45,985 nucleotides of DNA from Thermoproteota archaeon (GCA_027491735.1 JAOZGP010000038.1:1-45985), one strand, 5' to 3'. Shown: positions 634 to 24,381, counted from the stretch's first letter. The notes: generated from the sequence alone by a model not told the origin. Made by a program: numbers and translations.

Positions 634-1632
634 CTACCAGGACCTCTGTGACTGGGAATTGTATGCCCCTCCAAATATTCTCTCATAAGCATCTACAGCA
701 GCAACTGTCCCTTGACCAACGGCTTTGCTTATCTGTAGGGGTTCGCCTGTGACGTCTCCCACGGCGTAAACTCCTGAAATGTTTGTTCTCTGTAAACGAT
801 CAGTCAGGACGAATCCTCTTTCATCCAGCTGGATTCCGATCTTCCTAGCAAGGCTGTTGTTTGGCTCCACGCCTATTGCCACGAAGACTCCGTCCACCTC
901 AAGCTCGACTCTTTCGGTTCCGGATTTAGTGGATCTCCTCAGGACGAGCTTTTCCACTTTGGAGGTCCCTCTGATCTCATCAACTGTGGAGTTCCACACG
1001 GGCTCCAAGTTTGGGAGCCTCAGCATCCTCTCAACTATCGACTTCTCAGCTCTCATCTTCTCTCTTCTATGAATCAGGAATACCTCTCTGGCTATCTGGC
1101 TGAGGTAGAGTGCAGAGACAGCTGCAGTGTGTCCACCTCCTACGACAGCCACTCTCTTGTTCCTGTAAAGAGGTCCATCGCAAACCGCACAGTAGCTCAC
1201 ACCACGTCCAATTAGCCTTTCCTCTCCTGGAACATTTAATCTTCTCTCATTACATCCCGTCGCTAGAATTAAGGCTCCATATCTGAATTTTCTACCTGAC
1301 GAGGTGAGAAGTGTTCTCTCATTAGTGATGATATCTATCACCTCCTCAGGGAATAGCATCTCAGCGCCAGCGGATATGGCGTGCTCATGAAACCTCAATG
1401 CGAGATCTCTTCCCTTCGCTGAGGGTACTCCGGGGTAATTCTCTATGAGAGGAGCCACATTGATCTTCCCTCCTGGGAGATCCTTCTCTATAACCAGGGT
1501 CTTGAGACCATATCTCGCAGCATATATAGCTGAGGTGAGTCCTCCAGGGCCCCCTCCAACTACTATAACGTCCCAGCTCTCCTGAAGATTAGGTGAAGCA
1601 GATTTCATCAGCTCAGGCATCATGATGTTCAT
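634..1632 (-). CDS. trxB: Thioredoxin-disulfide reductase (NAD(P)/FAD-dependent)
   Basis: FAD motif GGGPGG, redox-active CAVC in GRGVSYCAVCDG, NAD(P)H motif VGGGHTA, C-terminal GVYAVGD; exact start uncertain (several Met). Confidence 0.92.
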   Translation of the reverse strand: MNIMMPELMKSASPNLQESWDVIVVGGGPGGLTSAIYAARYGLKTLVIEKDLPGGKINVAPLIENYPGVPSAKGRDLALRFHEHAISAGAEMLFPEEVIDIITNERTLLTSSGRKFRYGALILATGCNERRLNVPGEERLIGRGVSYCAVCDGPLYRNKRVAVVGGGHTAAVSALYLSQIAREVFLIHRREKMRAEKSIVERMLRLPNLEPVWNSTVDEIRGTSKVEKLVLRRSTKSGTERVELEVDGVFVAIGVEPNNSLARKIGIQLDERGFVLTDRLQRTNISGVYAVGDVTGEPLQISKAVGQGTVAAVDAYERIFGGAYNSQSQRSW

Positions 1633-1749
1633 CAGAAGCTAGTGTTGAGCTTTAAAATAAATAATCAAGTTTTGAATTATCGATAATTAATTTATATCCA
1701 ATTTCGGATGGGACACGTGCTCGCTGAACTTTCAGACCTTCCTAAACGC

Positions 1750-2544
1750 TCAAATAGACCTCACGATCATGTATATCGAGATTGTCAGGAGAATTAAAGC
1801 AAAGACCCTCCTAATGATCTTGGATTTAGTTCTTCCAGCAATTCTTGCTCCAACTTGGGCTCCAAACACGGTGCCTGGGACGAGGCCTAGGAGATAGCTG
1901 TACATCACATGTCCAAGAGAGGTTCTTACGATAAGACCTGAGAGCGCTGTTATCACTATCATGAAGCTTGACGTGGCTACTGCCACGTGGACCGGAGTTC
2001 CAGCAGCCACAAGAATTGGAACCTTCAACACTCCACCTCCAATTCCAAAAAAACCTGAGGAAAGGCCAGCTAGAAAGCTGAGGGCCATGGCAGGTATGAT
2101 ATCTATTTGATACACTGTCATCCCTCCACCACGGCCCACGATCCTCTTCAGTCTGAGACCACCAGCAAATCTGCCCAACCTAAGCTCTTCCTTCCACATC
2201 TTGTAGGATACCAGAGCCATGAGCATCGCGAAGAGGACCTTCATCTGCTCAGATGAGGTGAAGGCCGTCAACAAGGCCCCAAGATATCCTCCTGGCGCAG
2301 TTGTAAGCTCCAAGATGAGGCCAGTCTTCCAGTCAACCCTCCCCTGCCTGAAATAGGCGATTGCTGAGGAGAGACCCGTGAACAGGACGACGACTAAACT
2401 GGTTCCGGTGGCGAGGTGAGGGTCCAATCCAAGGAATATGAGCGCGGGAACGAGAATTATTCCTCCGCCTATACCAATGAACGCGCTCAATGTGCCAACA
2501 ATCCCTCCAAGGAGAAATAGAGCCACTATCTCCAATAAAGGCAT
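1750..2544 (-). CDS. TauE/SafE family sulfite exporter-like membrane protein
   Basis: Two repeats of GIGGG followed by P, A(T/V)(G/A)TS motif twice, about 8 hydrophobic segments. ATG at 2544 follows a GGAGGAG SD-like motif (ORF track starts at TTG 2574). Confidence 0.88.
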   Translation of the reverse strand: MPLLEIVALFLLGGIVGTLSAFIGIGGGIILVPALIFLGLDPHLATGTSLVVVLFTGLSSAIAYFRQGRVDWKTGLILELTTAPGGYLGALLTAFTSSEQMKVLFAMLMALVSYKMWKEELRLGRFAGGLRLKRIVGRGGGMTVYQIDIIPAMALSFLAGLSSGFFGIGGGVLKVPILVAAGTPVHVAVATSSFMIVITALSGLIVRTSLGHVMYSYLLGLVPGTVFGAQVGARIAGRTKSKIIRRVFALILLTISIYMIVRSI

Positions 2545-2584
2545 CAATAAGCTCTCCTCCAGCACCTTTCGCAATTAAAAGTCT

Positions 2585-2602
2585 ATGCTTAAGCATGCTT
2601 AA
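2585..2602. promoter_or_regulatory. Overlapping palindromes ATGCTTAAGCAT / TTAAGCATGCTTAA upstream of tauE; candidate operator
   Basis: Perfect 12-bp (2585-2596) and 14-bp (2589-2602) palindromes next to a TTTAAA box about 60 bp upstream of the tauE start. Confidence 0.35.
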
Positions 2603-2889
2603 ACATTTAAACTCGATGATCTCCTTGAAAGCTCCTAGCTCCGACCTCGTGAACCCCAGTGACCACAGTCAACGGATACGTTTTTATGGATTTCTCGGTT
2701 CTTCAAACCCTTTGCTCCTCATCATATAGATCTTCTCACTTCCCTCCTCGTCTTCGGATTCACAGTACATCATCATCACATGATAGCTACCTATCGGGGG
2801 GAGTATGAGTTTTATAATTGTATAAAAATAAGCAAGATGGGAGTCCATCCTCCACGATCCTGTGCATCAATTATGTGATGTTTGTGGAG

Positions 2890-2947
2890 CGGATGAGAAG
2901 GATGAGGCGGGGTATTTCAGGTACAGGCTGGTGGAGGGGTGATAGAT
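2890..2947 (+). repeat. Direct repeat copy 1 (58 bp exact) of the wHTH 3' end / qmoC-like start junction
   Basis: cggatgagaaggatgaggcggggtatttcaggtacaggctggtggaggggtgatagat is identical to 7769-7826; the match extends left through ttgtggagc with a 1-nt indel. Confidence 0.95.
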
Positions 2948-3146
2948 TGTTGAAGTGGCTCTCATTCATTGTTTATTTTTTACAGTCTGCTGTAAAGGAT
3001 AGAACAAAATTATCCTTTGTCTGGATCTATAACCTAGACATGGCATTACTAAAATATTTAGCTGGATCTCCTTTTTTCCTTTTTTATAAAAAACCATGAT
3101 TAAACTTAAATTTTGTAGGTATGCCTAAGAGGACAGGTGATAGATT

Positions 3147-3557
3147 TTGACAGACAAGATGTGTATAACAGTTGCGACTGGCAGCGTCGATAGGCTGACG
3201 GGCATGGCTGTTCTGGTAAGCGCCGCGGCAGCAATGGATGTTGAGGTTGAGATTTTCCTACAGCTCTGGGGAGTTTATGCCTTCAAGAAGGACGTCATAA
3301 ACAAAAACATGAATCTGATAGAGTTCAAGGAGCTCGGTCCTCAGGTAGTTGAGGGGATGAAAAGGGCCAACATCCCTCCATGGTTTGAGATGCTTAAACA
3401 GGCCAAGGAGGTGGGGAAGGTTAAGATCTACGCCTGCTCAGCGGCTTCCAAGATTTGGGACGTTAAGCTGGAGGACTTGGAGATGGTTGATGAGGTCATG
3501 GGCGCTGGAGAGTGGCTAGACAAGATGAAGGAGGCCAAGATAAATCTGTTCATATGA
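3147..3557 (+). CDS. DsrE/DsrF-like (DsrE2-type) sulfur carrier protein
   Basis: AAAM-x-x-EVEIF..WG motif, conserved KIYAC cysteine, C-terminal LFI; adjacent to tusA. Confidence 0.85.
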   Translation: MTDKMCITVATGSVDRLTGMAVLVSAAAAMDVEVEIFLQLWGVYAFKKDVINKNMNLIEFKELGPQVVEGMKRANIPPWFEMLKQAKEVGKVKIYACSAASKIWDVKLEDLEMVDEVMGAGEWLDKMKEAKINLFI

Positions 3558-3561
3558 GGAG

Positions 3562-3831
3562 GTGAGAACTTTGAGTCTGTCGGAAGAGGAGCTTAGAGGT
3601 CTCAAGCCCGATAAGACTGTGGATGCGAGAGGGACCTCCTGTCCTGGCCCCCTTCTTGCAGCTAAGAGGGCTATAGCCGACGTTCCTATAAACGGTATCC
3701 TGGAGGTCCTCTCCTCTGATCCGGGAACAAAGAGAGATCTACCCCTATGGGCTAAGAAGGTTGGGCATGAGTTTCTGGGAACTCTTGAGGAGCCTGGATA
3801 CTTCAGGGTCTTCGTGAGGAGGAAGAGGTAG
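3562..3831 (+). CDS. tusA: TusA family sulfur carrier protein
   Basis: DARGTSCPGP (CPxP) motif, SDPG..DLP.W, GH; start may be the TTG a few codons downstream. Confidence 0.92.
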   Translation: MRTLSLSEEELRGLKPDKTVDARGTSCPGPLLAAKRAIADVPINGILEVLSSDPGTKRDLPLWAKKVGHEFLGTLEEPGYFRVFVRRKR

Positions 3832-3842
3832 GGGGGAGCTTC

Positions 3843-4253
3843 ACGGACTGGAATTCTTTCAGGCCTAAAATACTAGTTTTTTCCTCCGATTTGATATCCT
3901 ATGTGGGCATAGACTTTGCTGGTCTCCAGCATATGCATTATCCTGCTACCACATCCATAATGAGGTTACCATGTTCCTCTATGATAAGACCGGAATGGAT
4001 TATTTTAGCGCTAAAAAATGGATTTGACGGTGTATTTGTGGCTGCCGATGGAACTGACTGCCCCTATCTCAGAGACTGTACGGATAGAACAGCCAAAAGA
4101 ATAGATGACGCTTTGAAGCTAGCGGAAAAGGAAGGAATAGAACCTCAGAGAATTAAGATGGCTGCTATCTGCTCGGTCTGTGGGGAACCATTCGCGAACC
4201 ACATGCACAATTTCTACAGAGAGCTGAAGGAGCTAGGACCAGTTAAGAGGTGA
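3843..4253 (+). CDS. mvhD: MvhD/FlpD-like iron-sulfur subunit (atypical Cys pattern)
   Basis: In-frame FRPKILVF upstream of the called TTG (3891) matches the MvhD N-terminus; also ISYVGIDFAG, IMRLPCSS, GFDGVFVA, GIEPQRI. Probable start ACG at 3843 after GGGGGGAG. Confidence 0.8.
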   Translation, partial: TDWNSFRPKILVFSSDLISYVGIDFAGLQHMHYPATTSIMRLPCSSMIRPEWIILALKNGFDGVFVAADGTDCPYLRDCTDRTAKRIDDALKLAEKEGIEPQRIKMAAICSVCGEPFANHMHNFYRELKELGPVKR

Positions 4254-4257
4254 TCTC

Positions 4258-5592
4258 TTGGGAGTCATGGACCAGATCTTAGAGAAAGCTGTTGAAGAGG
4301 AAGAAGCTGTGTCCTACGATGTTTTGGTTGTGGGAGGAGGGATAGCTGGAGAGTCCGCCTCTCTCGATCTGGCTGACATGGGGTTCAAGGTCCTACTGGT
4401 GGAGAAGGAGCCCTCAGTTGGTGGCAAGATGTATCTCCTCAGCAAGGTGTTTCCCACCCTGGACTGCGCCAGCTGCATATCCACACCGAGAATGGCTGCT
4501 GTGTCTCATCACCCGAACATAATCCTTCACACCTACTCAGAAGTCTTGGAGATCAGAAAATTGTCCGAAAGCGATTTTCAGGCGAGAATTCTGGTGAAAC
4601 CAAGGTTTGTGGAGGATGACTGTACCGGCTGTGGGCAGTGCGAAAAAGTCTGCCCTGTCGTGGTTCCAAAGGAGTACGACTTCGGGCTTAGAGGAAGAAA
4701 GGCTGCTTACATACCCTTCGATACAGCTGTCCCGAAGAAAGCCCTCATAGATCTGGATCACTGCATCTTCTGCGGTCAGTGCGAGAGGACCTGTCCTGTG
4801 GGTGCTGTGAACTTCCTTCAGGTACCTAAAGTCGTGAAAGTCAGGGTTAGGGCAGTTCTGATCGCTACCGGATACGAGCTGTTTTCCATCGAGAGAAAGA
4901 CTGAGTATGGATATGGGAAGTTCAAGAACGTCATAACTGCCATGCAAATGGACAGACTCCTTGCCCCAACGAGACCCTTTAACGCAGTTCTCAGACCATC
5001 TGATGGGAAGGAGCCGAGCAGCATAGCCTTCGTTTTGTGCTCGGGATCGAGAGATAGAACACTTAATAACCCCATCTGCTCGCAAGTATGCTGCATGTAC
5101 TCTGTGAAGCAGGCTCAGCTGCTTATGGGAGCTCTTCCTTTAGCAGACGTAACTATATACTACATGGACATAAGAGCCTTCGGGAAGGGGTTCGAGGAGT
5201 TCTATCAGCAGGCCAAAGCGATGGGAGCCATGTTCGTGAAGGGTCGTGTAGCTAAGATTGAGGAGACAGAGAACGATGATCTGGTCCTTTGGTATGAGGA
5301 TATAGAGAACGGAGGCAGGATTAGCAAGGCCGTCCATGACTTAGTCGTGTTATCAGTTGGTCTAAAACCGAACTCGGAGATAGTCGAAGTCTTTAAGGGC
5401 GAGGTTTTAGAGAGGGATGAGCTCGGATGGATAAGATCGAGGGATGAGAACGTTAACCCTGTTGAAACCAGCATAAAAGGTGTGTTTGCTGCCGGATGTG
5501 TGCTGGGACCGAAAGATATACCAGATACCGTTCTCGAGGCTGGGGCCGCAGCCGCTCAGGTGGCTGCCTATCTGAATGAGGTGGGGGTATGA
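4258..5592 (+). CDS. hdrA: Heterodisulfide reductase subunit A-like flavoprotein (short form, QmoA/HdrA family)
   Basis: GGGIAG FAD motif, KVFPTLDCASC, inserted ferredoxin (CTGCGQC, CIFCGQC), CSGSRD..CSQVCC, YMDIRAFGK, GPKDIP. Confidence 0.9.
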   Translation: MGVMDQILEKAVEEEEAVSYDVLVVGGGIAGESASLDLADMGFKVLLVEKEPSVGGKMYLLSKVFPTLDCASCISTPRMAAVSHHPNIILHTYSEVLEIRKLSESDFQARILVKPRFVEDDCTGCGQCEKVCPVVVPKEYDFGLRGRKAAYIPFDTAVPKKALIDLDHCIFCGQCERTCPVGAVNFLQVPKVVKVRVRAVLIATGYELFSIERKTEYGYGKFKNVITAMQMDRLLAPTRPFNAVLRPSDGKEPSSIAFVLCSGSRDRTLNNPICSQVCCMYSVKQAQLLMGALPLADVTIYYMDIRAFGKGFEEFYQQAKAMGAMFVKGRVAKIEETENDDLVLWYEDIENGGRISKAVHDLVVLSVGLKPNSEIVEVFKGEVLERDELGWIRSRDENVNPVETSIKGVFAAGCVLGPKDIPDTVLEAGAAAAQVAAYLNEVGV

Positions 5593-7538
5593 GCCCCAAT
5601 CGAAGAATAGGTGTCTATGTTTGCTGGTGTGGCGGGAACATATCGGACGTTGTTGATGTGAAAAAAGTCGTTGAGGTAATAAGCAAAGAATCCGATGTTG
5701 TGGTGGCTAAGGACTTCATGTTCATGTGTTCTGATGCTGGTCAGAGGATGATAGAGGAAGACGTCAAGGAGAAAAAGTTGGATGCTGTTGTGGTGGCCTC
5801 CTGCTCGCCAAAGCTTCACGAGCTCACGTTCAGAGGAGCAGTCACCAGAGCTGGGCTCAACCCGTATATGTACTATCACGCCAACATAAGGGAACAGGTA
5901 AGCTGGGCCCACGGCAACGATCCTGCTGAGGCCACCAGAAAAGCGATAAGGCACATAAGAGCGGGAGTTGCTTATCTCAGACATGCTGAACCGCTGAAGA
6001 AGATAGAGGTCAAGGCAGCTCGATCGGTCCTGATCATTGGAGGAGGAGTTGCCGGGCTCAGATCAGCTCTGGACCTCTCTAGGATGGGCTTAAATGTCTA
6101 TCTTGTGGAGAGAGAGCCTTTTGTTGGGGGTAACACTGCTAAACTATGGGAAGTTTATCCATATAAAAGGAAAGGCTGGGAGGTCATTGATTCCATTTTA
6201 AAGGATCTTCTCGGTAGAGATAATGTGGCCATCTACACGAATGCAGAGGTACGATCAGTAAGCGGATATCTGGGGAACTTTGAGGTGAAGGTGGAGATCA
6301 AGCCTAGGGGCTTCAGGGGGAGGTGTGAGGATCTTGAGAGGGTTGTCAGCGTCTGTCCCATTAAGGTACCTAATGAGTACGACTTCGGACTTACGAACAG
6401 ATGTGCCATAATCGCTCCACCCTATCCCGGAGCCTACCCGGAAATCCCGTCCATAGATTGGAAGAACTGTGTAAAGTGTAGGAAGTGTGCTGAGGTCTGC
6501 GATCAGATAGAACTGGACGATGAAGTGCAGACTGTGAGATTGAAGGTTGGAGCTATAGTAGTGGCCACTGGTTTCAGGCCTTATGAGCCGAGGCAAGGCG
6601 AGTACAAGTATGGCAGTTCCGAAAGAGTTCTAACGCTCCCTCAGTTCATGAAACTAGTTGAGAGATCTGGTGGTGAGTTGAAGCTTGGAAACAGAACTAT
6701 CAGGACTGTAGTCTTCATCTACTGTGTGGGAAGCAGGCAGGTCCCGTCCGGAGATGAGAAGGTGAACAGTTACTGTTCCAGATACTGCTGCAATGCTGTG
6801 ATGAACTTATCTGTCAGGATCCTAGACAGATTTAATGGATTAAAACTATACCACTTGTTCAGGGACATCAGGACATATGGAAAGCACGAGCTTATGTACG
6901 AGGAGGCCTGCAAGAAGGGTGTTATATTCATAAAGTACGATGAAAACCAACCTCCGGAGGTTCTAGTCTCAGGGAAGAGAACGATTGTTAGGGTAAGAGA
7001 CCTCCTCACGGAAAGGGAAGAGCTGGAGATCCCATCAGATCTTGTGGTTCTAGTGACAGGAATGGAGCCTACACCGAACGAGAAGCTTAATGAAATCCTA
7101 AAGCTTCCGATAGGTAAGGACGGATTCTATCAGGAGATGCACCCCAAGCTCAAGCCCGTGGAGACTACCCTTGCCGGAATGTTCATCGCTGGAGCCTGTC
7201 AGGGACCTAAAGATATAAGGGAAAGCGTGTTGTCCTCCTCAGCAGCGGCAGCAAAAGCCGCCACCTTAGTGCTTCCCGGACGGATAGAGCTGGAGCCGTT
7301 CACGGCTCTTGTCGATCCGGAGAGGTGTAACCTGAGCAAGAGGTGCGTTGACGAGTGTCCATATGGAGCAATCCAGATCAGGAGATACGAGGGTCTTGGG
7401 GAAAAGGCGTGGGTAAATGAGGTCCTCTGCAAGGGATGTGGTGCTTGTGTAGCAGCGTGTCCCAATGGAGCTATAAACATCAGGGGGCTTACAAACGTGC
7501 AGATTGAGGAGATGATAAGGGCGGCCGGGAGGGAATGA
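5589..7538 (+). CDS. hdrA: Heterodisulfide reductase subunit A-like flavoprotein (long form, QmoB/HdrA family)
   Basis: N-terminal CWCGGNI..CS..SCSP..ANIREQ domain, GGGVAG, YCVGSR..YCSRYCC, HPKLKPVET, GACQGPKDI, C-terminal ferredoxin CKGCGACVAACP. Confidence 0.92.
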   Translation: MSPNRRIGVYVCWCGGNISDVVDVKKVVEVISKESDVVVAKDFMFMCSDAGQRMIEEDVKEKKLDAVVVASCSPKLHELTFRGAVTRAGLNPYMYYHANIREQVSWAHGNDPAEATRKAIRHIRAGVAYLRHAEPLKKIEVKAARSVLIIGGGVAGLRSALDLSRMGLNVYLVEREPFVGGNTAKLWEVYPYKRKGWEVIDSILKDLLGRDNVAIYTNAEVRSVSGYLGNFEVKVEIKPRGFRGRCEDLERVVSVCPIKVPNEYDFGLTNRCAIIAPPYPGAYPEIPSIDWKNCVKCRKCAEVCDQIELDDEVQTVRLKVGAIVVATGFRPYEPRQGEYKYGSSERVLTLPQFMKLVERSGGELKLGNRTIRTVVFIYCVGSRQVPSGDEKVNSYCSRYCCNAVMNLSVRILDRFNGLKLYHLFRDIRTYGKHELMYEEACKKGVIFIKYDENQPPEVLVSGKRTIVRVRDLLTEREELEIPSDLVVLVTGMEPTPNEKLNEILKLPIGKDGFYQEMHPKLKPVETTLAGMFIAGACQGPKDIRESVLSSSAAAAKAATLVLPGRIELEPFTALVDPERCNLSKRCVDECPYGAIQIRRYEGLGEKAWVNEVLCKGCGACVAACPNGAINIRGLTNVQIEEMIRAAGRE

Positions 7539-7539
7539 C

Positions 7540-7821
7540 ATGAGCGAGAGGAGATCGACAGTGGTCCAGCTCAGGAACAGATCAGGGCTCAAACCCTCCA
7601 AGGAGAACGTAGAGCTCATGAGGAGAAGCAAGGAGGTTCAGACCGCTATAACTAAAGCCCTAAAGGATGGTCCTAAGACCGTCCCAGAGATAGCAAAGGC
7701 GACAGGCCTCTCTAAGGACGAGATCTTCTGGCACCTCATGACCATGCACAAATACGGGGTTGTGGAGCCGGATGAGAAGGATGAGGCGGGGTATTTCAGG
7801 TACAGGCTGGTGGAGGGGTGA
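7540..7821 (+). CDS. Small winged helix-turn-helix protein
   Basis: LKDGPKTVPEIAKATGL..IFWHLMTM.KYG.V is a typical wHTH pattern; tightly coupled within the operon. Confidence 0.75.
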   Translation: MSERRSTVVQLRNRSGLKPSKENVELMRRSKEVQTAITKALKDGPKTVPEIAKATGLSKDEIFWHLMTMHKYGVVEPDEKDEAGYFRYRLVEG

Positions 7822-7826
7822 TAGAT
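7769..7826 (+). repeat. Direct repeat copy 2 (58 bp exact)
   Basis: Identical to 2890-2947. Confidence 0.95.
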
Positions 7827-8871
7827 GACTGAGGTGAATCCCATCCTTATTGAAGAGATCAAGAGGTACGGGGCTTTCGACGTCACGGCCTGCTATAGCT
7901 GTGGGGTTTGCACAGCGATATGCCCTCTGGTCGAAGAAGGACGTGAGTTTCCGAGGAGAATGATAAGATATGCGCTCTTGGGGATCAGAAGAAAACTCTT
8001 TGGATCTCCTGAGCTCTGGCTCTGCTACTATTGTGGAGAGTGCACCAGCTCCTGCCCGAGACAGGCGGATCCAGGAGGGTTTATGATGGCCGCCAGAAGG
8101 TATGCAATCGCTGAATACTCGTTTGGTAGGATAGCAAAGATCTTCTACTCCAAGATAGGAGCTCCTCTGACCTTCATAGTGTTGACCTTGATAGCAGGAC
8201 TTCTGATGATTCTGTTCGGAGGAAACCCTAACATGAGCTCGGCTGACATATTCTCCCTCCTATCCAGAGAGACGATACATCACGCTGGAATAGCAGTTGG
8301 CATAATAGTTCTCCTGGGAGCCCTCGTGAACCTCGCGATGATGTACAGGCATCTCTCTCAGAATAGCGTCAAGGTCGGTGGGTTATCAGGTTTGATAAGG
8401 GTTCTCATAAAGGAGGTGGCGTATCAGGGAAGGTATGTGAAATGTGAAAGCAGATCGAGATTTCTGACTCACATGTCTTTGTTCTGGGGTTTTCTCTTGT
8501 TGTTTCTAGCCTCCGGAGTGAACTTTGTATCAGGAACCAGAAGTCCCATCGCTATTGTGATAGGATTCGTTGGGGGCATCTTCCTTCTCGTTGGAGGAAT
8601 ATACTTCGTAGCTAAGAGAGCTGAAAGGAGAGAGCCCTTCGCCTCTTACAGCGACTTCATGGATTGGGCTTTTTTAGCCCTTATACTGTTGGTAGGTGTG
8701 ACTGGTTTCCTCTTGGACTTCGCTCTGGTCACTAATCTGCCACTGATGGCATACACCATGTTTTCCATGCACTTGATAGCTGCCTTTGATCTATTGATAG
8801 CTGCTCCCTTCACCAAGTTCGCTCATGCGGTCTACAGGCCCTTGGCCCTCTGGATGTCAGAAAGAGTTTAA
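7825..8871 (+). CDS. QmoC-like protein: HdrC-type 2x[4Fe-4S] domain fused to a cytochrome b-like membrane domain
   Basis: CYSCGVCTAICP and WLCYYCGECTSSCPR, then about 6 TM helices with His in FLTHMSLFWGF, MHL and TKFAHAVYRP. Confidence 0.85.
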   Translation: MTEVNPILIEEIKRYGAFDVTACYSCGVCTAICPLVEEGREFPRRMIRYALLGIRRKLFGSPELWLCYYCGECTSSCPRQADPGGFMMAARRYAIAEYSFGRIAKIFYSKIGAPLTFIVLTLIAGLLMILFGGNPNMSSADIFSLLSRETIHHAGIAVGIIVLLGALVNLAMMYRHLSQNSVKVGGLSGLIRVLIKEVAYQGRYVKCESRSRFLTHMSLFWGFLLLFLASGVNFVSGTRSPIAIVIGFVGGIFLLVGGIYFVAKRAERREPFASYSDFMDWAFLALILLVGVTGFLLDFALVTNLPLMAYTMFSMHLIAAFDLLIAAPFTKFAHAVYRPLALWMSERV

Positions 8872-9269
8872 AACACGGCAACAACGGCCTCTTCTTAATT
8901 TCTTTTTTATTGCGTAAGTTCATATAATAATCTCCAGCGGATCTGTTGATATTGAGCCACCAGCAGTACACCTCCTTCTTCTAGACCAAAGAAACCACGT
9001 CTGAGAGGGTGCCTTAAGGAACACTCATCGGAAATCAGCTCTAATAGTGAACACCATAGTTAAAAACGACGCCTTTCTCCTCACACACCTAGGTTTGGGC
9101 TGATTCACCGAGCTTGACGGTCGCGGATCGCAGCCTTAACCTGTTTCTCAGATTCATGCCGGGGGCCTGTCATGCAAGCCCTGCGCATCGGGGCTCCTCT
9201 CTCATCAGTTGCCTGAGGACCGTGGTCTCCTTGCTGTAAACTCCAACCAAAAAATCAAAAAATTGAAAT

Positions 9270-9746
9270 CTATGGATCAGACTCGCTTGGGTAGAGGACT
9301 TCTTCTTCCCCATCATAATCAAATATTCCCGCGTAAACACCCCACAGAACCAGACATTCGAAGGCTTCATCGACATTTTCACAGAAGCTGAAGTCCTTAT
9401 CCAATAGCTTTGAAATAATTTCTTCCTTCTCTATGGATCCTTTTTGGACGAGCTCCTCCTTGATCCTTCTGAATATCTCTATCTTCAGGAGTTTCTCCCT
9501 GAGATGCTTTGCCCTCTCTTCGTGGGACATCCTCAGAAATGCCCTTCCCTCCTGCGTCAGAAGGATGTCCCCATTGCGTACTTCCACTAAGTCCAAGATC
9601 CTAGCGAAGGTCATCACAGGGAAGAGCTCATCTATGTCAAGTTCGCTCTCGTCTGAGAGCCTTGCCATGTCAGCTCTTCCGCCTATATTCTCTAACATCC
9701 TTAGGAGGCCCAATAACTTGGAGTAGGATACGGGAGCTTCGCCCAA
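9270..9746 (-). CDS. Stand-alone AAA-associated C-terminal domain protein of NitT/TauT-type ABC ATPases
   Basis: GGRADMARL..L.IDELFP, GDILLT.EG, LVLWG.YAGIFDYD; likely start TTG 9746 (ORF track extension to 9905 looks non-coding). Confidence 0.72.
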   Translation of the reverse strand: MGEAPVSYSKLLGLLRMLENIGGRADMARLSDESELDIDELFPVMTFARILDLVEVRNGDILLTQEGRAFLRMSHEERAKHLREKLLKIEIFRRIKEELVQKGSIEKEEIISKLLDKDFSFCENVDEAFECLVLWGVYAGIFDYDGEEEVLYPSESDP

Positions 9747-10123
9747 TCCTGATCTGAGATAAAACCAGAACTGAGTATTGATAAATGTTTTCTCACAAAC
9801 TGAGATTTTCATTCGAACCCGCAGGAGACCATGAGAACATCCGATTCTCCTCTTAAGGATAAGGAATTCGATCATCGTCGGGCTTCCGGCGGGTTCTGTC
9901 AGCAATCCTTCAACCTTCTTAAGAAACTCCCGTGACGTCTAAGGTCGAGAGATTGTCTTTATAGTGAAAAAAGCGGTCTGTGAGCCGTTAAACCAATTCC
10001 TTTTGATAAGTGCGCTTCATGCGATGAGGACTCATAACAGATCACGTTATTGATGATGGGGGTGGGAGCTGTCCTTCAGAAGATGGGATGCTCACTGCTT
10101 GCTTGATCTCACTGAGAGCCAGA

Positions 10124-10879
10124 TCAGCTAGAGAGCACACTGTACACCTCATCCATCTTGTTATAGAATTCTGGGCTTCTTGTATCCCTAGGTCTTTTCA
10201 GATCTATCTTAACTATGCCTAGTATCTTGGAGGGCCTTCTGGAGAGCACTACCACATAATCAGACATGTAAACTGCCTCCTCAACGTTGTGTGTGACCAT
10301 CACCACCGATTTAACATGCGTCTCGCTTCTCCAAAGCTCTAGAATCTCCTCCCTGAGGGAGTCAGCTGTCAGCTCGTCCAATGCCGAGAAGGGCTCATCC
10401 ATGAGGAGGAGATCGGGCTCAACAGCTAGGGCTCTAGCTATGCCAACTCTCTGCTTCATCCCCCCCGAGAGCTCCTTGGGAAGAGCATTCATGAACTCAT
10501 ACAAACCAACTTTTCTCAACCATCTCCTGACTAGCTCCTCCCGCCCTCTTTTGTCAATACCCCTGGCCTTCAACGGTAGCTCTACCTGTTCCCAGACAGT
10601 CAGCCATGGGATCAGAGCAAAGTGCTGAAATACCATCGATATCTTCCGATCTGGGCCCTTTATCTCTCTTCCTTTGAAGATTATCCTCCCGGAGGTTGGC
10701 TTCTCTATTCCACCCATTATCTTGAGGAGAGTGGACTTGCCACACCCACTGGGGCCCACTATCGAGAGGAAGACTCCCTCATCCACCGAGAAATCAACGT
10801 TGTCCAGAACCTTGAGAGTCCCTCCCTCAACCTCAAACCTCTTCGTTATCCTCTCAACCCTCATGAGCATGAGGATCAC
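10124..10879 (-). CDS. NitT/TauT family ABC transporter ATP-binding protein
   Basis: Walker A GPSGCGKST, LSGGMKQRV, LLMDEPFSALD, VTHNVEEAV. Confidence 0.93.
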   Translation of the reverse strand: MILMLMRVERITKRFEVEGGTLKVLDNVDFSVDEGVFLSIVGPSGCGKSTLLKIMGGIEKPTSGRIIFKGREIKGPDRKISMVFQHFALIPWLTVWEQVELPLKARGIDKRGREELVRRWLRKVGLYEFMNALPKELSGGMKQRVGIARALAVEPDLLLMDEPFSALDELTADSLREEILELWRSETHVKSVVMVTHNVEEAVYMSDYVVVLSRRPSKILGIVKIDLKRPRDTRSPEFYNKMDEVYSVLSS

Positions 10880-12450
10880 CCCTCGAACCTGAATCTTGAA
10901 GAGTAGTTGTAGAGAGCCCTCCAGATGGTCTTGTTGAACACCACTATGAGCAGCATGATCACCAGTAGGACTATTAGAAGAGAACTTATGTCACCAAGTT
11001 GCCAAGCAGCCAAGCTGAGCAGAGTTCCAAGTCCGTACTGACCGACATCAGAGGGGTATATTCTCCCCCCTACGTTTATGTACTCCGCCATTATCGTAGT
11101 GTTCCAGGCTCCCCCCCAGGCTGTTATCAGGCCCGTGACCACCGACGAAAACATGGAGGGCAGGGTTATCTTTCTAAGTGCTAGGAACCCCCTTATGCCG
11201 AAGATCTTTCTCATCTCGTCTATCTCTGGTGGCATGGATCCAGCTCCAGCAATCATGTTGAACAGAAGGTAGAACTGCGAGCCGAAGAGTATGAGAACCA
11301 GAGCGGCTAGCTCAAAGCCCTGCTTCCCCATAGGAAGTATCATATACTTCACTAAGAAGGGCCAGAGGACAGGTATGGGGAACGCCGCTGCAAGTTCGAA
11401 CAGGAGGAGGAAGTTTTCCTTGTACTTACTCCTCTGTATAAGGATAGTTGTTGGAAGAGTCCACGCCAAAGAGATCATTAGGGCCAAAAACACCCTCCTC
11501 AATGAGTTAATAGTCCCCGTGATCAGAAGTTGTGGTTCCCTCATGTACTCAGATGATAGGAGGTAGCTCAGCTTTATCAGGGGTGCCCTCCTCAACAGGA
11601 GGGCTGCTGATAGGAGGGCCATTATTATGAAGGCTATCTTGGACCACTTGATCAGAGCAGGATAGATCTCCGTCATGAGGATGCTGAACTTTTCAGCTAT
11701 GTTCTCAAAAAACTTGCCTCTTTTTATCCTCTCAAGACCAAAGAGAGCCATCCTCCTGAGAAGAATTAAGGTTCTTGGTTTTTCTGAGACCTCACTCACC
11801 TTGCTAGCGCTTATGCTTATGAGTGGCTCCCAGACGAGGAGGTGTGTTAGCACCACCAGGGTCAAGATCGTGGCTGTGGCGACCACGGCGTCCCATATTC
11901 TCGGTGGAGAGGAGGTCAGAGCAATTACTAGATACGATCCCAGGCCTGGGAGTTTGATCTCAGCTCCTCCGACTGATAGTATCTCCGAGGCGTACAAGAA
12001 GAACCATCCACTACTCCAGGAAAGGGCGGAGTTGTAGGAGAGCTTGAGGTAAGTCGAAGGGATCGTTATCTTGACAAGTCTGAGCCATCCATCTATGCCA
12101 TAAAATCTGGCCATCTCCTCCACATCTTTGGGGATCATCCTCACGCTCTCATACACGCCGAAAGCCATGTTCCATACTTGTGATGTGAAGATTAGAAAGA
12201 TCGAGGAAAGCTCGCCCCCAAATACCGGACCTAAGACATTCATGAAGAATATTAGGACCACAGGAAAGAAACCTAGGATTGGAACACTCTGCATGATGTC
12301 CAAAACAGGAATTACTACCTTCTCAGCAGTTTCGCTCCTTGCGGCCCAGATCCCAAACACCAGCGAGAATACAAGGGACAGAAGATACGCTGCGATCATC
12401 CTGTACATAGAGAGCGCTGCGTACCACAGCACTTGGGTCAGTGGAGTCAT
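10876..12450 (-). CDS. ABC transporter permease with two fused TM domains (NitT/TauT-like)
   Basis: Two permease repeats (S.YRM..AY / SLRRV; LDIMQSVPILGFFP; GLITAWGGAWN), 524 aa, overlaps the ATPase start. Confidence 0.88.
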   Translation of the reverse strand: MTPLTQVLWYAALSMYRMIAAYLLSLVFSLVFGIWAARSETAEKVVIPVLDIMQSVPILGFFPVVLIFFMNVLGPVFGGELSSIFLIFTSQVWNMAFGVYESVRMIPKDVEEMARFYGIDGWLRLVKITIPSTYLKLSYNSALSWSSGWFFLYASEILSVGGAEIKLPGLGSYLVIALTSSPPRIWDAVVATATILTLVVLTHLLVWEPLISISASKVSEVSEKPRTLILLRRMALFGLERIKRGKFFENIAEKFSILMTEIYPALIKWSKIAFIIMALLSAALLLRRAPLIKLSYLLSSEYMREPQLLITGTINSLRRVFLALMISLAWTLPTTILIQRSKYKENFLLLFELAAAFPIPVLWPFLVKYMILPMGKQGFELAALVLILFGSQFYLLFNMIAGAGSMPPEIDEMRKIFGIRGFLALRKITLPSMFSSVVTGLITAWGGAWNTTIMAEYINVGGRIYPSDVGQYGLGTLLSLAAWQLGDISSLLIVLLVIMLLIVVFNKTIWRALYNYSSRFRFEG

Positions 12451-12860: not shown

Positions 12861-13343
12861 GTGATGAGGATACTGGTAGCTGGGATAGGAAACGTGCTCC
12901 TAAAGGATGATGGCATCGGTCCGCGGCTGATCGAGAGGATAAAAGAAAAACTACCTCCGGAGGTTGAAACTTACGATTACGGGAACTCGATGATCGAGCT
13001 TCTTCACGACATGGCGGACTTCGACGCGCTTATCATTGTTGATGCAATCTCCAGGGGAGGGAGACCGGGAGATATCCTTGTTGGGGAGGTGAAGAAAGAC
13101 GACATAGAAGACGTAGATCCGGGAAAGGCCTCACTTCTGATGCACATGAGCTATCATGAAGCAGATCTGGAATCCGTCCTCGCTCTAGCCAAGGCCCTGG
13201 GATTTCTCCCAAAGAAGATATTCCTGGTGGGGGTCGAACCAGGACACATTGGAGTGGGCACAGAACTTTCAGCTCCCGTAAAGAAGGTGTTGGATCGCTT
13301 GGAACGGATAGTACTGGATATCGTGGATGGCCTGAGACAATAA
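12861..13343 (+). CDS. [NiFe]-hydrogenase maturation endopeptidase
   Basis: GIGNVLLKDDGIG, IIVDA, SYHE, GVEP, LS.PV. Confidence 0.92.
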   Translation: MMRILVAGIGNVLLKDDGIGPRLIERIKEKLPPEVETYDYGNSMIELLHDMADFDALIIVDAISRGGRPGDILVGEVKKDDIEDVDPGKASLLMHMSYHEADLESVLALAKALGFLPKKIFLVGVEPGHIGVGTELSAPVKKVLDRLERIVLDIVDGLRQ

Positions 13344-13619
13344 CCTGTCACCAGCCGCTAAACATTATAAATTTATAATATCTGAGAGTATAAAATTGAT
13401 ATCCTCTAACGACTTGCCAGCTCAACTGCCTCTCATTATCCCAGTTCTTCTACAGTTCTTGGCGATCTGCCCGAATAAGCCATAGATGTCCGGCGGTGAT
13501 CACGGTCTGCAGCTTCCTATTAGAAGAAACGCCGCTTGATCACGTCTGGCGCAAAACGGATGCAACCATAAGTATTCTAGGAAAAACCTTCAATCAGGGG
13601 TCTGTCCGTCGTGAGCTTT

Positions 13620-13910
13620 TAGGAGGAACGTGAGTGAAATCCCTCCCATTCAAGTCAACCCTCACGACGGGCTTGGGGTTCATCAGCCTCAACCCTCTCT
13701 GGGTTCATCGGGGAGCAAGTCACCGGCCTCACCTCCGCTCAGGGTGACCCCAAGTCCCCGCACGAAAAACGTTAAATGCACTAACAAACTGCCTATCCGC
13801 AACAAACCACGCTTGCAAACTACCAGCCCGCTTCAGGACTCTAACCTGCTCCCACATCTCGGGCAGATGGATGAGGTGTGAGCCGTGTAAGGCTTCTCCT
13901 TAACCACCGT
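13620..13910 (-). pseudogene. tnpB: tnpB (IS200/IS605) C-terminal remnant with structured right end
   Basis: Minus strand reads VVKEKPYTAHTSSICPRCGSRLES*SGLVVCK, then after a frameshift GFVADRQFVSAFNVF (Zn finger + RuvC-III); followed by stems 13669-13678/13748-13758 and 13719-13724/13743-13748. Confidence 0.75.
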
Positions 13911-14267
13911 ACGCCTCTATAATCAATTATAAAGGCTTTAAAACATCTTGCTAAAAAAGAACAGTTGGCTGAGGCGTCAGAAAGTACCTCAGAGAGTAAC
14001 ACTGCATTTAATTTAGTGTTATTTAGGCAAAGATGAGTTGAGATAAACCCTATGATGAACAAAAAACTACATCGACCTATTTTTGGTACTAGATAAAAAA
14101 AAGGGAAAAAACTGAGTAGGATCTCCTCAGCGGAAGGAAGAGCTCATTTTTTAGTCATTAAATTTTAGTGAAAAAGGGAAAAACGTTTTTTCCTATTTTC
14201 CTTGAGAAATTTTTTAAGTAATTTTTGTAGAAAAACTTATGCTCAAGAGAAAGAGGGTGTTGACGTT

Positions 14268-15488
14268 ATGGTCTCAAGGAGGGAGTTCCTGAAGACCTTG
14301 TTGGTCTATGCAGCTATTCTTTCAATGTCTAATCTGCCTGTTAAAGCGGACAAAACCGTGGAGCTAGCTTCTGAACACGTCAAAAGAGTTATGAAGGGTG
14401 AGGAGGACCCAGTGCATGTGATATGGATTCAGGGGCAGTCGTGCAGCGGTGATAGCGTTGCTCTGCTCAACGCTGTGGATCCGAGTATAGTCGACGTCCT
14501 CATCGGCCAGGTTCAGGGGGTTCCACCAGTGGAGCTCGACTATCACCCCACTCTCATGCCTCAATGGGGTGTCGATCACATAAGTGAAGAAGCAGGTTCT
14601 CTCGCCAGGGGATGGGATGCCAACAAGATAATAGACGACGTGATAGATGGCAAGTACGACCCTTATGTGCTTGTGGTAGAGGGAGCTATTCCAAATGAAA
14701 CAACTGCACAGAAGACCGGTGGGTATTGGTGTAGCATAGGTGAGAGCAGAGGAAAGACGTACCTCATGGAGCCATATCTGCGGCTCCTAGCAGCGAGAGC
14801 AGCTGCCGTTGTTGCTATAGGTACATGTGCCTCATTTGGAGGAATACCTCATGGCAAACCGAATCCAACAAGCACGAGAGGGGTCTATGATGTGCTGGGC
14901 CACGGATGGAAGAGTTCCTTGGGAGTTCCTGTGGTGAACGTCCCAGGATGTCCTGCTGGAGGAGATTGGCAAGTGAAGGCCATAGCTCATCTCCTGCTTA
15001 CTGTTAAGGGACTGCTTCCAGTACCGGAGCTGAACAAGTACAATATGCCTGTCTTTCTCTACGGACAGACAACTCACGAGCTCTGTCCTAGAGGAGTGTA
15101 CTTCGGGCTAGGGAAGTTTTCTGAGAAGTATGGGCAGCCTCTATGCATGTTCTCCTTGGGGTGCAAGGGTCCCATCAGTAACTGCCCGATAAACAGAACG
15201 GGATTCGTTGAGGGTGTTGGAAGATGCACCGAATATGGATCCGTGTGTATAGGATGCACCATGCCAGACTTTCCAGATGAGCCTTATGCGCCGTTCCTCA
15301 AGGAGCTTCCAACAATTCTGCTGCCGCCAACTAAGCCAAAGCCTGAGGTCATTAAGACGAACCTTACAGCTGTTGGTGCTGCGGCCATAGCTGGAGCTGC
15401 TGTGGGAGGTGGAATAGCCTATTTTGTCGGTGCTAGGATGGGGAAGAAGCCTAAAAGCGAGGAAGAGGAAAAAGAGGGAGGTGAGTGA
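14268..15488 (+). CDS. Group 1 [NiFe]-hydrogenase small subunit, Tat signal and C-terminal membrane anchor
   Basis: MVSRREFLK Tat motif (start moved to ATG 14268), GQSCSGD, GTCASFGGI, PGCP, HELC, LGCKGP, CIGC, hydrophobic C-terminal helix. Confidence 0.93.
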   Translation: MVSRREFLKTLLVYAAILSMSNLPVKADKTVELASEHVKRVMKGEEDPVHVIWIQGQSCSGDSVALLNAVDPSIVDVLIGQVQGVPPVELDYHPTLMPQWGVDHISEEAGSLARGWDANKIIDDVIDGKYDPYVLVVEGAIPNETTAQKTGGYWCSIGESRGKTYLMEPYLRLLAARAAAVVAIGTCASFGGIPHGKPNPTSTRGVYDVLGHGWKSSLGVPVVNVPGCPAGGDWQVKAIAHLLLTVKGLLPVPELNKYNMPVFLYGQTTHELCPRGVYFGLGKFSEKYGQPLCMFSLGCKGPISNCPINRTGFVEGVGRCTEYGSVCIGCTMPDFPDEPYAPFLKELPTILLPPTKPKPEVIKTNLTAVGAAAIAGAAVGGGIAYFVGARMGKKPKSEEEEKEGGE

Positions 15489-15490
15489 TC

Positions 15491-17305: not shown

Positions 17306-17317
17306 GGAGGTGAGTTC

Positions 17318-18196: not shown

Positions 18197-18201
18197 TCCT
18201 C

Positions 18202-19065: not shown

Positions 19066-19080
19066 GCAGTGACCACAGCT

Positions 19081-19100
19081 CCTCCTCTTTTTATTCTTTC
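19081..19100 (+). terminator. Pyrimidine/T-rich archaeal terminator-like tract after hydrogenase structural genes
   Basis: cctcctcttttttattctttc directly after the nrfD-like stop. Confidence 0.4.
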
Positions 19101-19117
19101 TAAGCTTCTTCTGATGG

Positions 19118-19558
19118 GTGATGTCTCTGCACGAATGGGCAGTAGCTGATGCCATAGTCTCCTCGCTGGTCAACTTCTGCTCCTCGAGAGGAGCTAGCAG
19201 GATATTGAAGGTTGAGATCGTTTACGGGGAGGCCATGGAGTACAACCTCGAAGTTCTCAGGGATGCTGTTGAGTATCTTTCCAAGGGAACTCCACTGGAG
19301 GGAGCTGAGATAGTCTTCAAGGAGGAGAAGAGCATATTCAGGTGTAACGCCTGTGGAGCTAAATGGGACATAGCTGAGGCTGAGAGACTGATAAACAGAG
19401 CCCTCAAAGTGGAGGAAGAAGGTGAAGGATTTGAGAGTCCGCTTCACTTCATACCGGAGCTGGCGTCCTCCCTGATGAGGTGTCCAAAGTGCGGAAGTCC
19501 TGATGTCGAGATGGTAGAGGGAGACTCCGTCAGAGTTTCTAAGGTGGTGATGGGCTAA
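19118..19558 (+). CDS. hypA: Hydrogenase nickel incorporation protein HypA
   Basis: N-terminal LHEW, CNAC and CPKC zinc motifs with archaeal HFIPE insert. Confidence 0.92.
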   Translation: MMSLHEWAVADAIVSSLVNFCSSRGASRILKVEIVYGEAMEYNLEVLRDAVEYLSKGTPLEGAEIVFKEEKSIFRCNACGAKWDIAEAERLINRALKVEEEGEGFESPLHFIPELASSLMRCPKCGSPDVEMVEGDSVRVSKVVMG

Positions 19559-20319: not shown

Positions 20320-20335
20320 GTGAGAGGGATTTCTC

Positions 20336-24369: not shown

Positions 24370-24381
24370 GAGGATTTAAGA

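Follow-up and report, generated by a model that had tools for sequence, protein, structure and literature searches.

The stretch of DNA analyzed here (the window) is 45,985 nucleotides (nt) long, comes from a Thermoproteota archaeon (GCA_027491735.1 JAOZGP010000038.1:1-45985; contig C3 of the host genome), and carries at 3147-8871 seven tightly packed + strand genes that join two sulfur carriers, a DsrE2-like protein and TusA, to a core of two HdrA paralogs, an MvhD-like subunit, and a QmoC-like membrane subunit. Judged by profile matches, trees, and gene order, this operon belongs to a widespread TusA/DsrE2-linked branch within the published type II Qmo family, and it is not unique to this genome. 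The branch is probably a widespread means by which protein-bound sulfur is connected to the quinone pool in phyla that are mostly without sulfate or sulfite respiration. More specifically, the complex may serve as a quinone-linked, possibly bifurcating oxidoreductase acting on sulfane sulfur bound to TusA and DsrE2, a reading for and against which the chances appear about equal.

The seven-gene operon

Open reading frames (ORFs) were called across the window and searched against Pfam and NCBIfam profiles, with the following result for the operon.

3147..3557, + strand: DsrE2-like protein, 136 amino acids (aa), candidate active-site Cys97 (PF13686, 58.5 bits)
3562..3831, + strand: TusA sulfur carrier, 89 aa (PF01206, 76.7 bits)
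3891..4253, + strand: MvhD/FlpD-like iron-sulfur subunit, 120 aa (PF02662, 92.8 bits; cut-off 22.3)
4258..5592, + strand: short HdrA paralog, QmoA-like, 444 aa (NF040770 (HdrA2), 487 bits, positions 127-561)
5589..7538, + strand: long HdrA paralog, QmoB-like, 649 aa (NF040770, 613 bits, positions 1-641)
7540..7821, + strand: small winged helix-turn-helix (wHTH) protein, 93 aa (HTH_5, 25.9 bits)
7825..8871, + strand: QmoC-like membrane subunit, 348 aa (best family NF038018 (qmoC), 201.6 bits; cut-off 300)

Junctions across the seven genes measure, in order, 4, 59, 4, -4, 1, and 3 nt, and because they are so short the genes are regarded as a single operon, which is real and intact. An original prediction made from the sequence alone had read the order as dsrE-tusA-mvhD-like-hdrA(short)-hdrA(long)-wHTH-qmoC-like, divergent from tauE and trxB, and both the ORFs and the family profiles agree with that order and with its domain assignments.

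A Qmo-like but non-canonical core

The architecture is that of Qmo, with two HdrA paralogs and an HdrC::cytochrome b fusion. In the QmoC-like subunit, an N-terminal HdrC-like 2x[4Fe-4S] domain is fused to a NarI-like cytochrome b domain with about six hydrophobic segments, and an alignment of 93 QmoC-type sequences shows that the eight iron-sulfur Cys and His216, His316, and His334 are kept in type II proteins and in 9/9 canonical QmoC. The short HdrA consists of a flavin adenine dinucleotide (FAD) domain with an inserted 2x[4Fe-4S] ferredoxin domain and has neither an N-terminal nor a C-terminal ferredoxin domain; it aligns with solved methanogen HdrA (8rvv, 5odc) over residues 130-560 at E ~1e-119. 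The long HdrA spans positions 1-641 of the 777-position HdrA2 model, which is all but the C-terminal MvhD part. The fusion of MvhD to the C-terminus of QmoB is thus absent, and MvhD is instead encoded by a separate 120-aa ORF two genes upstream of the long HdrA. Both paralogs have an intact GxGxxG FAD motif and intact HdrA cluster motifs, and the FAD motif and Cys clusters of the long HdrA are invariant.

Both HdrA paralogs resemble typical HdrA more than they do canonical Qmo subunits. The short one is 43% identical to the host's conventional HdrA versus 33-38% to canonical QmoA, and the long one 40% versus 25-26% to canonical QmoB. A 58-row HdrA tree resolves six groups (canonical QmoA, canonical QmoB, the two TusA-type paralogs, and two paralogs from clusters that begin with qmoC), each on one side of a branch with support of 96-100. 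Canonical QmoA and QmoB (6 rows each) form clades separate from both window paralogs, which fall in clades of 16 TusA-type sequences each, with Shimodaira-Hasegawa-like approximate likelihood-ratio (SH-aLRT) values of 100 for the short and 99 for the long HdrA.

The QmoC-like subunit behaves in the same way. When NF038018 was scored in a sample of 41 genomes, taken from the phylum to which a cluster-carrying 'Deltaproteobacteria' metagenome-assembled genome (MAG) belongs, the scores were bimodal, with nine canonical proteins at 373-525 bits and three at 199-207, beside which the window QmoC stands at 201.6. A tree of 93 QmoC-type proteins unites the nine canonical ones in a single clade (SH-aLRT 100) and places the window protein opposite them, together with 83 type II rows; its nearest neighbor is that of a Nitrososphaerales MAG (52% identity). 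The operon is therefore not a canonical QmoABC, and the Qmo-like but non-canonical character claimed for it in the original prediction is borne out by the placement of its proteins outside the canonical clades.

Neukirchen et al. 2023 use the name type II Qmo for complexes whose QmoAB are closer to HdrA than to canonical Qmo (PMC10504309). It occurs with or without Apr and Dsr, includes two known sulfate reducers, and has a function that the paper leaves open (PMC10504309). By sequence, the window core matches this family and is non-canonical but intact. The claim of an uncharacterized system in the window thus needs narrowing: the core has already been named in print and the cluster is widespread, and it is the TusA/DsrE2-linked branch that is uncharacterized.

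Conservation across genomes

A one-genome-per-species scan yielded 80 loci that encode QmoC-like relatives, and tblastn with the window proteins identified their neighbors. Of the 72 loci with a flank of at least 300 nt, 65 have the wHTH gene immediately before qmoC. At least 6.2 kb of upstream sequence is available in 49 loci, 41 of which have hdrA and wHTH genes upstream of qmoC. Among these 41, the dsrE/tusA linkage on which the original prediction relied is kept, with tusA in 40 (L077 is the sole locus without it) and a dsrE-like gene in 33. The end of tusA and the start of the mvhD-like gene are separated by 450 nt or less in 45/48 loci, and the dsrE-like gene is found upstream of tusA in 15 of all 49 loci and just downstream of qmoC in 22. 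Beyond the seven genes, neighborhoods vary between loci.

Carriers span at least 15 named phylum labels from both domains. Archaeal labels are Nitrososphaerota, Thermoproteota, Heimdallarchaeota, Thermoplasmatota, and Methanobacteriota (Archaeoglobales), and bacterial labels are Aminicenantota, Acidobacteriota, Armatimonadota, Chloroflexota, Bacteroidota, Actinomycetota, Bacillota, Planctomycetota, Gemmatimonadota, Ignavibacteriota, Myxococcota, and Chrysiogenota. Of 40 host relatives, one alone has the TusA-type cluster, a genome of the same genus with all seven genes at 81-94% identity. A dsrA match was found in 5/48 TusA-type carrier genomes (four above cut-off) and an aprA match in 4/48 (three above cut-off); the cluster is independent of Apr and Dsr.

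In a Thermoleophilia MAG (L071) and a Chloroflexota MAG (L067), the cluster, or qmoC, is present twice within 17 kb, on opposite strands.

Sulfur carriers

TusA and DsrE proteins bear Cys-bound sulfur (PMC4175335, PMC11094781). The window TusA belongs to the Pfam TusA family and has a single Cys27 within the CPGP motif (Cys27-Pro-Gly-Pro); D21, A22, R23, C27, P28, G29, and P30 are invariant in 16/16 sequences. It is the best-conserved member of the cluster, and its homologs are 43-80% identical to the window protein across phyla, above the 31-52% found for QmoC across carriers.

The nearest solved structure to the DsrE-like protein is 2qs7 (E 5.5e-24), which is SSO1126 of Sulfolobus, a DsrE2B (Liu et al. 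2014, PMC4175335). The protein scores 32.8 bits against the DsrE2 equivalog NF047629, short of the 210-bit cut-off, and is nearer to the DsrE2B structure. Its Cys97, equivalent to the active-site residue, is kept in 38/38 aligned cluster-linked homologs. Both genes that the original prediction took for carriers of the sHdr type are thus present, with the correction that the DsrE-like protein is of the DsrE2B kind and not a TusA-loading DsrE3.

A partnership between the two carriers is supported by TusA::DrsE_2 fusions in a metagenome protein library (P0197, P0223, P0225, P0226). These proteins join two to four TusA domains to one DrsE_2 domain and are close relatives of the window TusA, as are three proteins of 727-824 aa in the same library with five or six tandem TusA domains (P0137, P0144, P0149). 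One further fusion, TusA::MvhD in P0198, was considered as Rosetta-stone evidence and rejected, as the 60-90 residues between its domains look like out-of-frame translation and the protein is probably a frameshift or gene-call merge.

Fusions of TusA to an ArsR-type helix-turn-helix (HTH) domain occur in 3/4 longer TusA homologs (P0122-P0124) and in P0164, and an ArsR-family ORF is found in 10 related loci; where its place was checked, it comes immediately behind tusA. Loci with ArsR genes near tusA include L028, L036, L062, and L067. Several of these proteins beside or fused to TusA have one Cys near the start of the HTH and another in the last helix, a pair that we take to resemble those of the persulfide sensors BigR and SqrR.

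The MvhD-like subunit and a hydrogenase-linked sister type

The MvhD-like protein aligns with solved MvhD 5odc_D (E 2.7e-17), and it is the subunit in which the TusA-type clusters differ. The pair Cys94-x2-Cys97 (window numbering) is found in 47/47 TusA-type loci versus 0/5 hydrogenase-type loci, in all five of which these positions are Ser and Glu. Neither 5odc_D nor the host's own conventional MvhD has Cys at positions 94 and 97. TusA-type MvhD-like proteins are without the classical N-terminal Cys pair and the 'GGC' Cys; the window protein retains Cys28 and Cys57, has extra Cys63, Cys94, and Cys97, and departs from the classical pattern (N-terminal pair, 'CSG', 'GGC', 'GDC'). A search for Cys specific to the TusA type in both HdrA paralogs and QmoC found none.

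The hydrogenase type is represented by seven Bathyarchaeia/Nitrososphaeria loci ordered qmoC-hdrA(short)-hdrA(long)-mvhD, referred to as QmoC-first; four relatives of the host (L116-L119) share the initial qmoC-hdrA arrangement. Wherever the flank is available (L020, L026, L028, L032, L084), mvhD is followed by genes for the small and large subunits of a [NiFe] hydrogenase, which indicates that the same core is coupled to a hydrogenase on the MvhD side, as in the methanogen Mvh-Hdr complex. In tblastn searches with the window proteins, the seven loci gave no wHTH match and no convincing tusA, the nearest being a weak 21% TusA-like match 6 kb away in L020. By analogy, the sister cluster would be a membrane-anchored Mvh-Hdr-like complex in which quinone replaces the heterodisulfide; no mention of it was found in the papers examined.

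A further variant was found in bacteria. In 17 bacterial TusA-type loci (L016, L021, L023, L025, L027, L033, L034, L038-L040, L046, L054, L055, L059, L062, L085, L089), the short HdrA reaches ~900 aa through an inserted GltD/NfnB-like module (Fer4_20 + Pyr_redox_2), whose domains point to entry or exit of NAD(P)H. A Rex-like gene heads the operon in three Aminicenantes loci (L023, L033, L034).

The winged-helix protein

The wHTH gene sits between hdrA and qmoC with junctions of 1 and 3 nt, a position kept in both domains of life. Its product contains no Cys, and the region of its recognition helix is hydrophobic and rich in W, M, and Y rather than basic. The AlphaFold2 model has winged-helix topology (predicted local distance difference test score 89), and Foldseek returned generic winged-helix matches only, at E ~1e-3 (Fur, SmtB, BigR, SqrR, Z-alpha), which do not separate a regulator from a subunit. 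The lack of Cys, the W/M/Y-rich helix, and the tight hdrA-wHTH-qmoC junctions in both domains disfavor the role of a plain regulator; from its sequence, the protein may be either a subunit or a regulator.

Host genome context

Families were searched throughout the host genome (1.36 Mb in 41 contigs, 88% complete). No aprA was found in this 88%-complete assembly (best match 25.9 bits), and family searches of the same contigs returned neither mcrA nor a PF00384 molybdopterin oxidoreductase. Contig C23 encodes DsrA (548 bits), DsrB (494), DsrK (591), and DsrC; with no aprA found, the host looks like a sulfite-type Dsr archaeon. Within C23:19077-27676 (L107), a likely DsrM-sized ORF precedes DsrK, and two ORFs of 128 and 71 aa between dsrK and dsrA are without a family match. 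CCG/HdrB domains occur on C36, C23, C30, C22, and C18 and not on C3, and a conventional hdrA-mvhD-hdrC-hdrB cluster lies on C36. Sat (C9:14920-17359, L122) stands in a row with adenosine 5'-phosphosulfate (APS) kinase and a second TauE-family permease, an arrangement that suggests synthesis of 3'-phosphoadenosine 5'-phosphosulfate and assimilation rather than dissimilatory sulfate activation. The single GcvH-family match is on C32 among genes unrelated to hdr, and no LbpA is linked to the operon. The original statement that the window has no aprAB, sat, hdrB, or lbpA is correct, all family-search matches being on other contigs; genome-wide, no aprA was found in the 88%-complete assembly, and HdrB, GcvH-family, Sat with APS kinase, and DsrABC with DsrK are present elsewhere.

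An uptake-type [NiFe] hydrogenase cluster (12861-25407) lies in the window 5 kb downstream of qmoC and includes the following genes.

12861-13343: HycI protease
14202-15488: hydrogenase small subunit
15485-17305: hydrogenase large subunit
17318-18196: 4Fe-4S subunit with a twin-arginine translocation (Tat) signal
18202-19065: NrfD-type membrane anchor
19558-20319: Mrp/NUBPL-like ATPase

HypF, HypD, and a HypE-like protein, then TatC (25445-26341), are also encoded in this region. The cluster is likely an H2:quinone module beside the Qmo-like operon. At 27583-31043, the window further encodes a radical-SAM/SPASM protein together with a 700-aa tungsten-type aldehyde:ferredoxin oxidoreductase (AFOR_N + AFOR_C) that probably supplies the host with reduced ferredoxin.

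Proposed mechanism and rival explanations

Gene content, motifs, phylogenetic placement, and conserved synteny are observations; from them we infer that the complex binds TusA, what its substrate is, where catalysis takes place, and which way the reaction runs. A heterodimer of two HdrA-type flavo-iron-sulfur proteins would form the center of a type II Qmo-like complex, and the QmoC-like subunit, with its HdrC-like iron-sulfur part and dihaem cytochrome b, would exchange electrons with membrane quinone. By homology, the electron path would run between quinone, the haems and clusters of QmoC, the two flavins of the HdrA pair, and the MvhD-like cluster. We propose that the complex has as its redox partner the sulfane sulfur, or a similar S-S species, on Cys27 of TusA, because the TusA and DsrE2-like genes stand where the sister type has its hydrogenase and the MvhD-like subunit carries a type-specific Cys pair. 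A DsrE2-like trimer may load or buffer the sulfur of TusA through Cys97, and the sulfur reaction, or at least docking, would take place at or near the MvhD-like subunit, with Cys94-x2-Cys97 in the role of HdrB. The net reaction would be TusA-S-SH + 2e- + 2H+ <-> TusA-SH + H2S, coupled to quinol/quinone.

The reductive direction, that of a cytoplasmic sulfane-sulfur reductase, is favored for the host because the organism appears to be H2-oxidizing and Dsr-bearing and to be without a Psr/Sre-type enzyme; the Rex-headed and NAD(P)H-module variants are in line with this preference. By standard potentials, quinol by itself falls short of reducing a persulfide, while quinol together with reduced ferredoxin is about isopotential with S0/H2S. 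Reversible confurcation on the HdrA flavin is therefore attractive, and a confurcating mechanism has already been discussed for Qmo. The HdrA flavin may confurcate or bifurcate with a low-potential carrier, which would be ferredoxin here and NAD(P)H in the bacterial variant with the GltD-like insert. The fully specified version of this proposal is tentative and somewhat doubtful: a widespread enzyme for respiration or redox balancing, namely a persulfide (TusA-bound sulfane sulfur):quinone oxidoreductase of an undescribed kind, with a bifurcating HdrA pair, an MvhD-derived Cys94-x2-Cys97 sulfur site replacing HdrB, and the wHTH protein as a structural adaptor, in which the core would be a plug-in unit for hydrogenase, NAD(P)H, or a sulfur carrier.

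Several points weigh against a sulfane-sulfur oxidoreductase. The cluster contains no HdrB/CCG catalytic subunit, and we know of no case in which HdrA, MvhD, or QmoC acts on S-S bonds. By the potentials given above, the reductive direction would need confurcation as an assumed step. Since TusA-type MvhD has lost the N-terminal Cys pair and the 'GGC' Cys, Cys94 and Cys97 may merely replace the classical ligands of its [2Fe-2S] cluster. The dsrE-like gene is absent from 8/41 loci, TusA also has biosynthetic roles, and the TusA::HTH fusions would suit a sensory role just as well. Because most carrier lineages are uncultured, no phenotype is tied to the cluster. DsrE2B, which among characterized proteins is closest to the DsrE-like protein, was unreactive with all six sulfur compounds assayed, whereas DsrE3A and TusA reacted (PMC4175335). 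A complex prediction of long HdrA, MvhD-like, and wHTH proteins with TusA as the partner scored 0.00; it was run without controls and is evidence neither way. Of the quinone-linked sulfane-sulfur system first predicted, the non-canonical core and the conserved carriers stand and the roles given to TauE and TrxR do not (see below), while its sulfur chemistry is something we infer. Neither of the two findings named beforehand as contradicting that prediction emerged: the proteins are not in canonical Qmo clades alongside an aprAB elsewhere in the genome (no aprA found, 88% completeness), and the dsrE/tusA linkage is kept in other genomes.

The main rival is the opposite direction, in which sulfide or thiol-bound sulfur would be oxidized to TusA persulfide and electrons passed to quinone, as in sulfide:quinone oxidoreductase, perhaps with bifurcation to reduced ferredoxin; such a system would serve sulfide detoxification, energy gain, or the supply of activated sulfur for TusA-dependent biosynthesis in sulfidic habitats. 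Electron flow from sulfide to quinone is downhill by standard potentials, HdrA modules bifurcate in methanogens, the carriers include aerobic or facultative heterotrophs without dsrA and aprA (Chthonomonas calidirosea and other Chthonomonadales), and two-Cys ArsR-type regulators, presumably akin to BigR and SqrR, stand beside or are fused to TusA. The Rex-headed operons and NAD(P)H-type insert of Aminicenantes nevertheless suggest an electron sink, and sulfide would be an end product in an H2-oxidizing Dsr organism such as the host, which leaves the oxidative direction unlikely. It is also rather improbable that TusA, possibly with the wHTH and DsrE2-like proteins, is a sensor, regulator, or maturation accessory and not a substrate, and that the MvhD-HdrA-HdrA-QmoC core is a ferredoxin- or NAD(P)H:quinone oxidoreductase, possibly bifurcating, that is tuned by sulfane sulfur. 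The ArsR-HTH::TusA fusions, the embedding of a winged-helix gene in 65/72 loci, the operation of the hydrogenase-type sister complex without TusA, the lack of an S-S-active subunit in the cluster, and the NAD(P)H-type module that the bacterial variant (17 loci) has of its own would all be accommodated by such an arrangement. It sits poorly with an embedded wHTH protein that has no Cys and a hydrophobic rather than basic recognition helix, with a tusA that adjoins the mvhD-like gene in both domains at 43-80% identity versus 31-52% for QmoC, and with a change of MvhD subtype that co-occurs with TusA; a pure regulator pair would also seldom be kept in 40/41 horizontally spread clusters.

An ordinary Qmo that serves APS reductase or the Dsr pathway in sulfate or sulfite reduction, as assumed for type II in Vulcanisaeta moutnovskia, would be in keeping with the DsrA (548 bits), DsrB (494), DsrK (591), and DsrC of the host, with the presence of the cluster along with aprA and dsrA in Vulcanisaeta and an Archaeoglobales MAG, and with type II Qmo in two known sulfate reducers (PMC10504309). 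This explanation is very improbable, however, given an 88%-complete host genome without aprA, a Sat that stands with APS kinase in an assimilatory-type context, aprA in only 4/48 and dsrA in only 5/48 carrier genomes, and proteins that lie outside the canonical clades.

Neighboring genes and other features

The operon is flanked by two divergent genes and two short sequence features.

634-1632, - strand: TrxR-like protein (TIGR01292, 329 bits; cut-off 343)
1750-2574, - strand: TauE permease (PF01925, 187 bits)
2882..2965, + strand: ~85-nt duplicate of the wHTH 3' end and qmoC start, 91% identical to 7760-7844
8890..8912, + strand: T-rich tract after the qmoC stop, seen in the sequence

The original prediction gave TauE and TrxR working parts in the system, moving a sulfur compound and recycling thiols, and this idea is not supported: a TauE-like gene is near the cluster in 1/80 related loci (L083) and a true TrxR homolog likewise in 1/80 (L019, 45% identity), and because of this rarity both are taken as chance neighbors. 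Other 'TrxR' matches near clusters were rejected as a GltD-like insert within a long HdrA. Adjacency to an ABC transporter (window 9270-12450 and five related loci) was also considered and dismissed, as it amounts to generic ATPase similarity of 28-37% with no common permease.

The direct repeat at 2882-2965 and 7760-7844 has 58 nt identical in a row, its two copies are the only ones genome-wide, and the intergenic copy lies upstream of dsrE; it may have been left behind by a rearrangement or tandem duplication, or may be an artifact of assembly. An ORF of 93 codons at 2818-3099 is without a family match, consists partly of the duplicated fragment, and is probably not a gene. The T-rich tract is possibly an archaeal oligo-T terminator. 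An Rfam scan of the window returned nothing.

In Aminicenantes and Chthonomonadales (L023, L024, L033, L034, L069, L075, L088, L090), a gene for a FadL/TodX-family outer-membrane channel follows the downstream dsrE-like gene, and in Aminicenantes a TonB-dependent-receptor-like gene comes next. The FadL/TodX gene may, speculatively, mean uptake of a hydrophobic substrate such as S8; a literature search on FadL and elemental-sulfur uptake returned nothing usable.

Significance

The handling of zero-valent and protein-bound sulfur in the cytoplasm, the function of type II Qmo, and the catalytic partners of HdrA-like modules are poorly understood areas, and the cluster touches all three by pairing defined sulfur carriers with a quinone-linked HdrA/Qmo core. 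Carriers include groups counted as non-sulfur in metagenomic surveys, namely Aminicenantes, Chthonomonadales, Chloroflexota, Bacteroidales, relatives of Bathyarchaeia, and Asgard archaea. If the proposed function is true, sulfur-cycling potential would be under-called by the markers dsrAB, aprAB, and psr, flavin-based electron bifurcation would gain a new class of acceptor or donor, and 'non-sulfur' heterotrophs in at least 15 phyla could respire or dispose of electrons on zero-valent sulfur. Cultured carriers exist in Chthonomonas calidirosea and Vulcanisaeta, which makes direct testing feasible.

Comparison with known systems

QmoABC connects quinone to a cytoplasmic sulfur enzyme (PMC10504309). 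The window operon shares with the canonical (type I) complex of sulfate reducers and green sulfur bacteria the two HdrA-derived flavoproteins, the MvhD module, and the HdrC::cytochrome b subunit, as well as the presumed link from quinone to such an enzyme. It differs in a QmoC score of 201 versus 300 bits, in HdrA paralogs only 25-38% identical to QmoA and QmoB, in an MvhD that is a separate upstream gene and not the QmoB C-terminus, and in having embedded tusA, dsrE-like, and winged-helix genes in place of a link to aprBA.

Type II Qmo is the family to which the window core is assigned. Like its QmoAB, the window HdrA paralogs are closer to typical HdrA (40-43% versus 25-38%), and their best model is HdrA2. 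Vulcanisaeta sp. JCM 14467 carries the same seven-gene cluster (L056), V. moutnovskia itself being outside the comparison. The accessible text of PMC10504309, taken without its supplements, has no TusA/DsrE2/winged-helix linkage, hydrogenase sister, or MvhD Cys signature, and a literature search that did not reach the supplementary synteny tables of that paper found no description of a tusA-dsrE-mvhD-hdrA-hdrA-HTH-qmoC cluster.

The sHdr-LbpA system likewise encodes an HdrA-type flavoprotein beside tusA and dsrE-family genes; TusA interacts with sHdr proteins in Aquifex (PMC11094781), and Sulfolobus SSO1126 (DsrE2B) corresponds to the DsrE2B gene that Metallosphaera has beside its Hdr-like cluster (PMC4175335). 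That system has HdrB1/B2, HdrC1/C2, LbpA, and lipoate ligases, none of which is linked here, where the only HdrC-like part is the N-terminus of QmoC; the present operon is instead membrane-anchored through QmoC and has two HdrA paralogs and MvhD.

The methanogen MvhAGD-HdrABC complex resembles the window core in its HdrA (40-43% identity, E ~1e-119 to solved HdrA) and its MvhD connector. Here, the cluster has no hydrogenase or HdrB, the HdrC part is fused to cytochrome b, and MvhD has lost classical Cys and gained Cys94 and Cys97.

Finally, DsrMK-DsrC offers a parallel in which a membrane cytochrome b and an iron-sulfur protein link quinol to protein-bound sulfur, as a tri- or disulfide on a small carrier. 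There, the CCG-domain protein DsrK is the catalyst and DsrC serves as carrier; the host has both of these separately, on C23.

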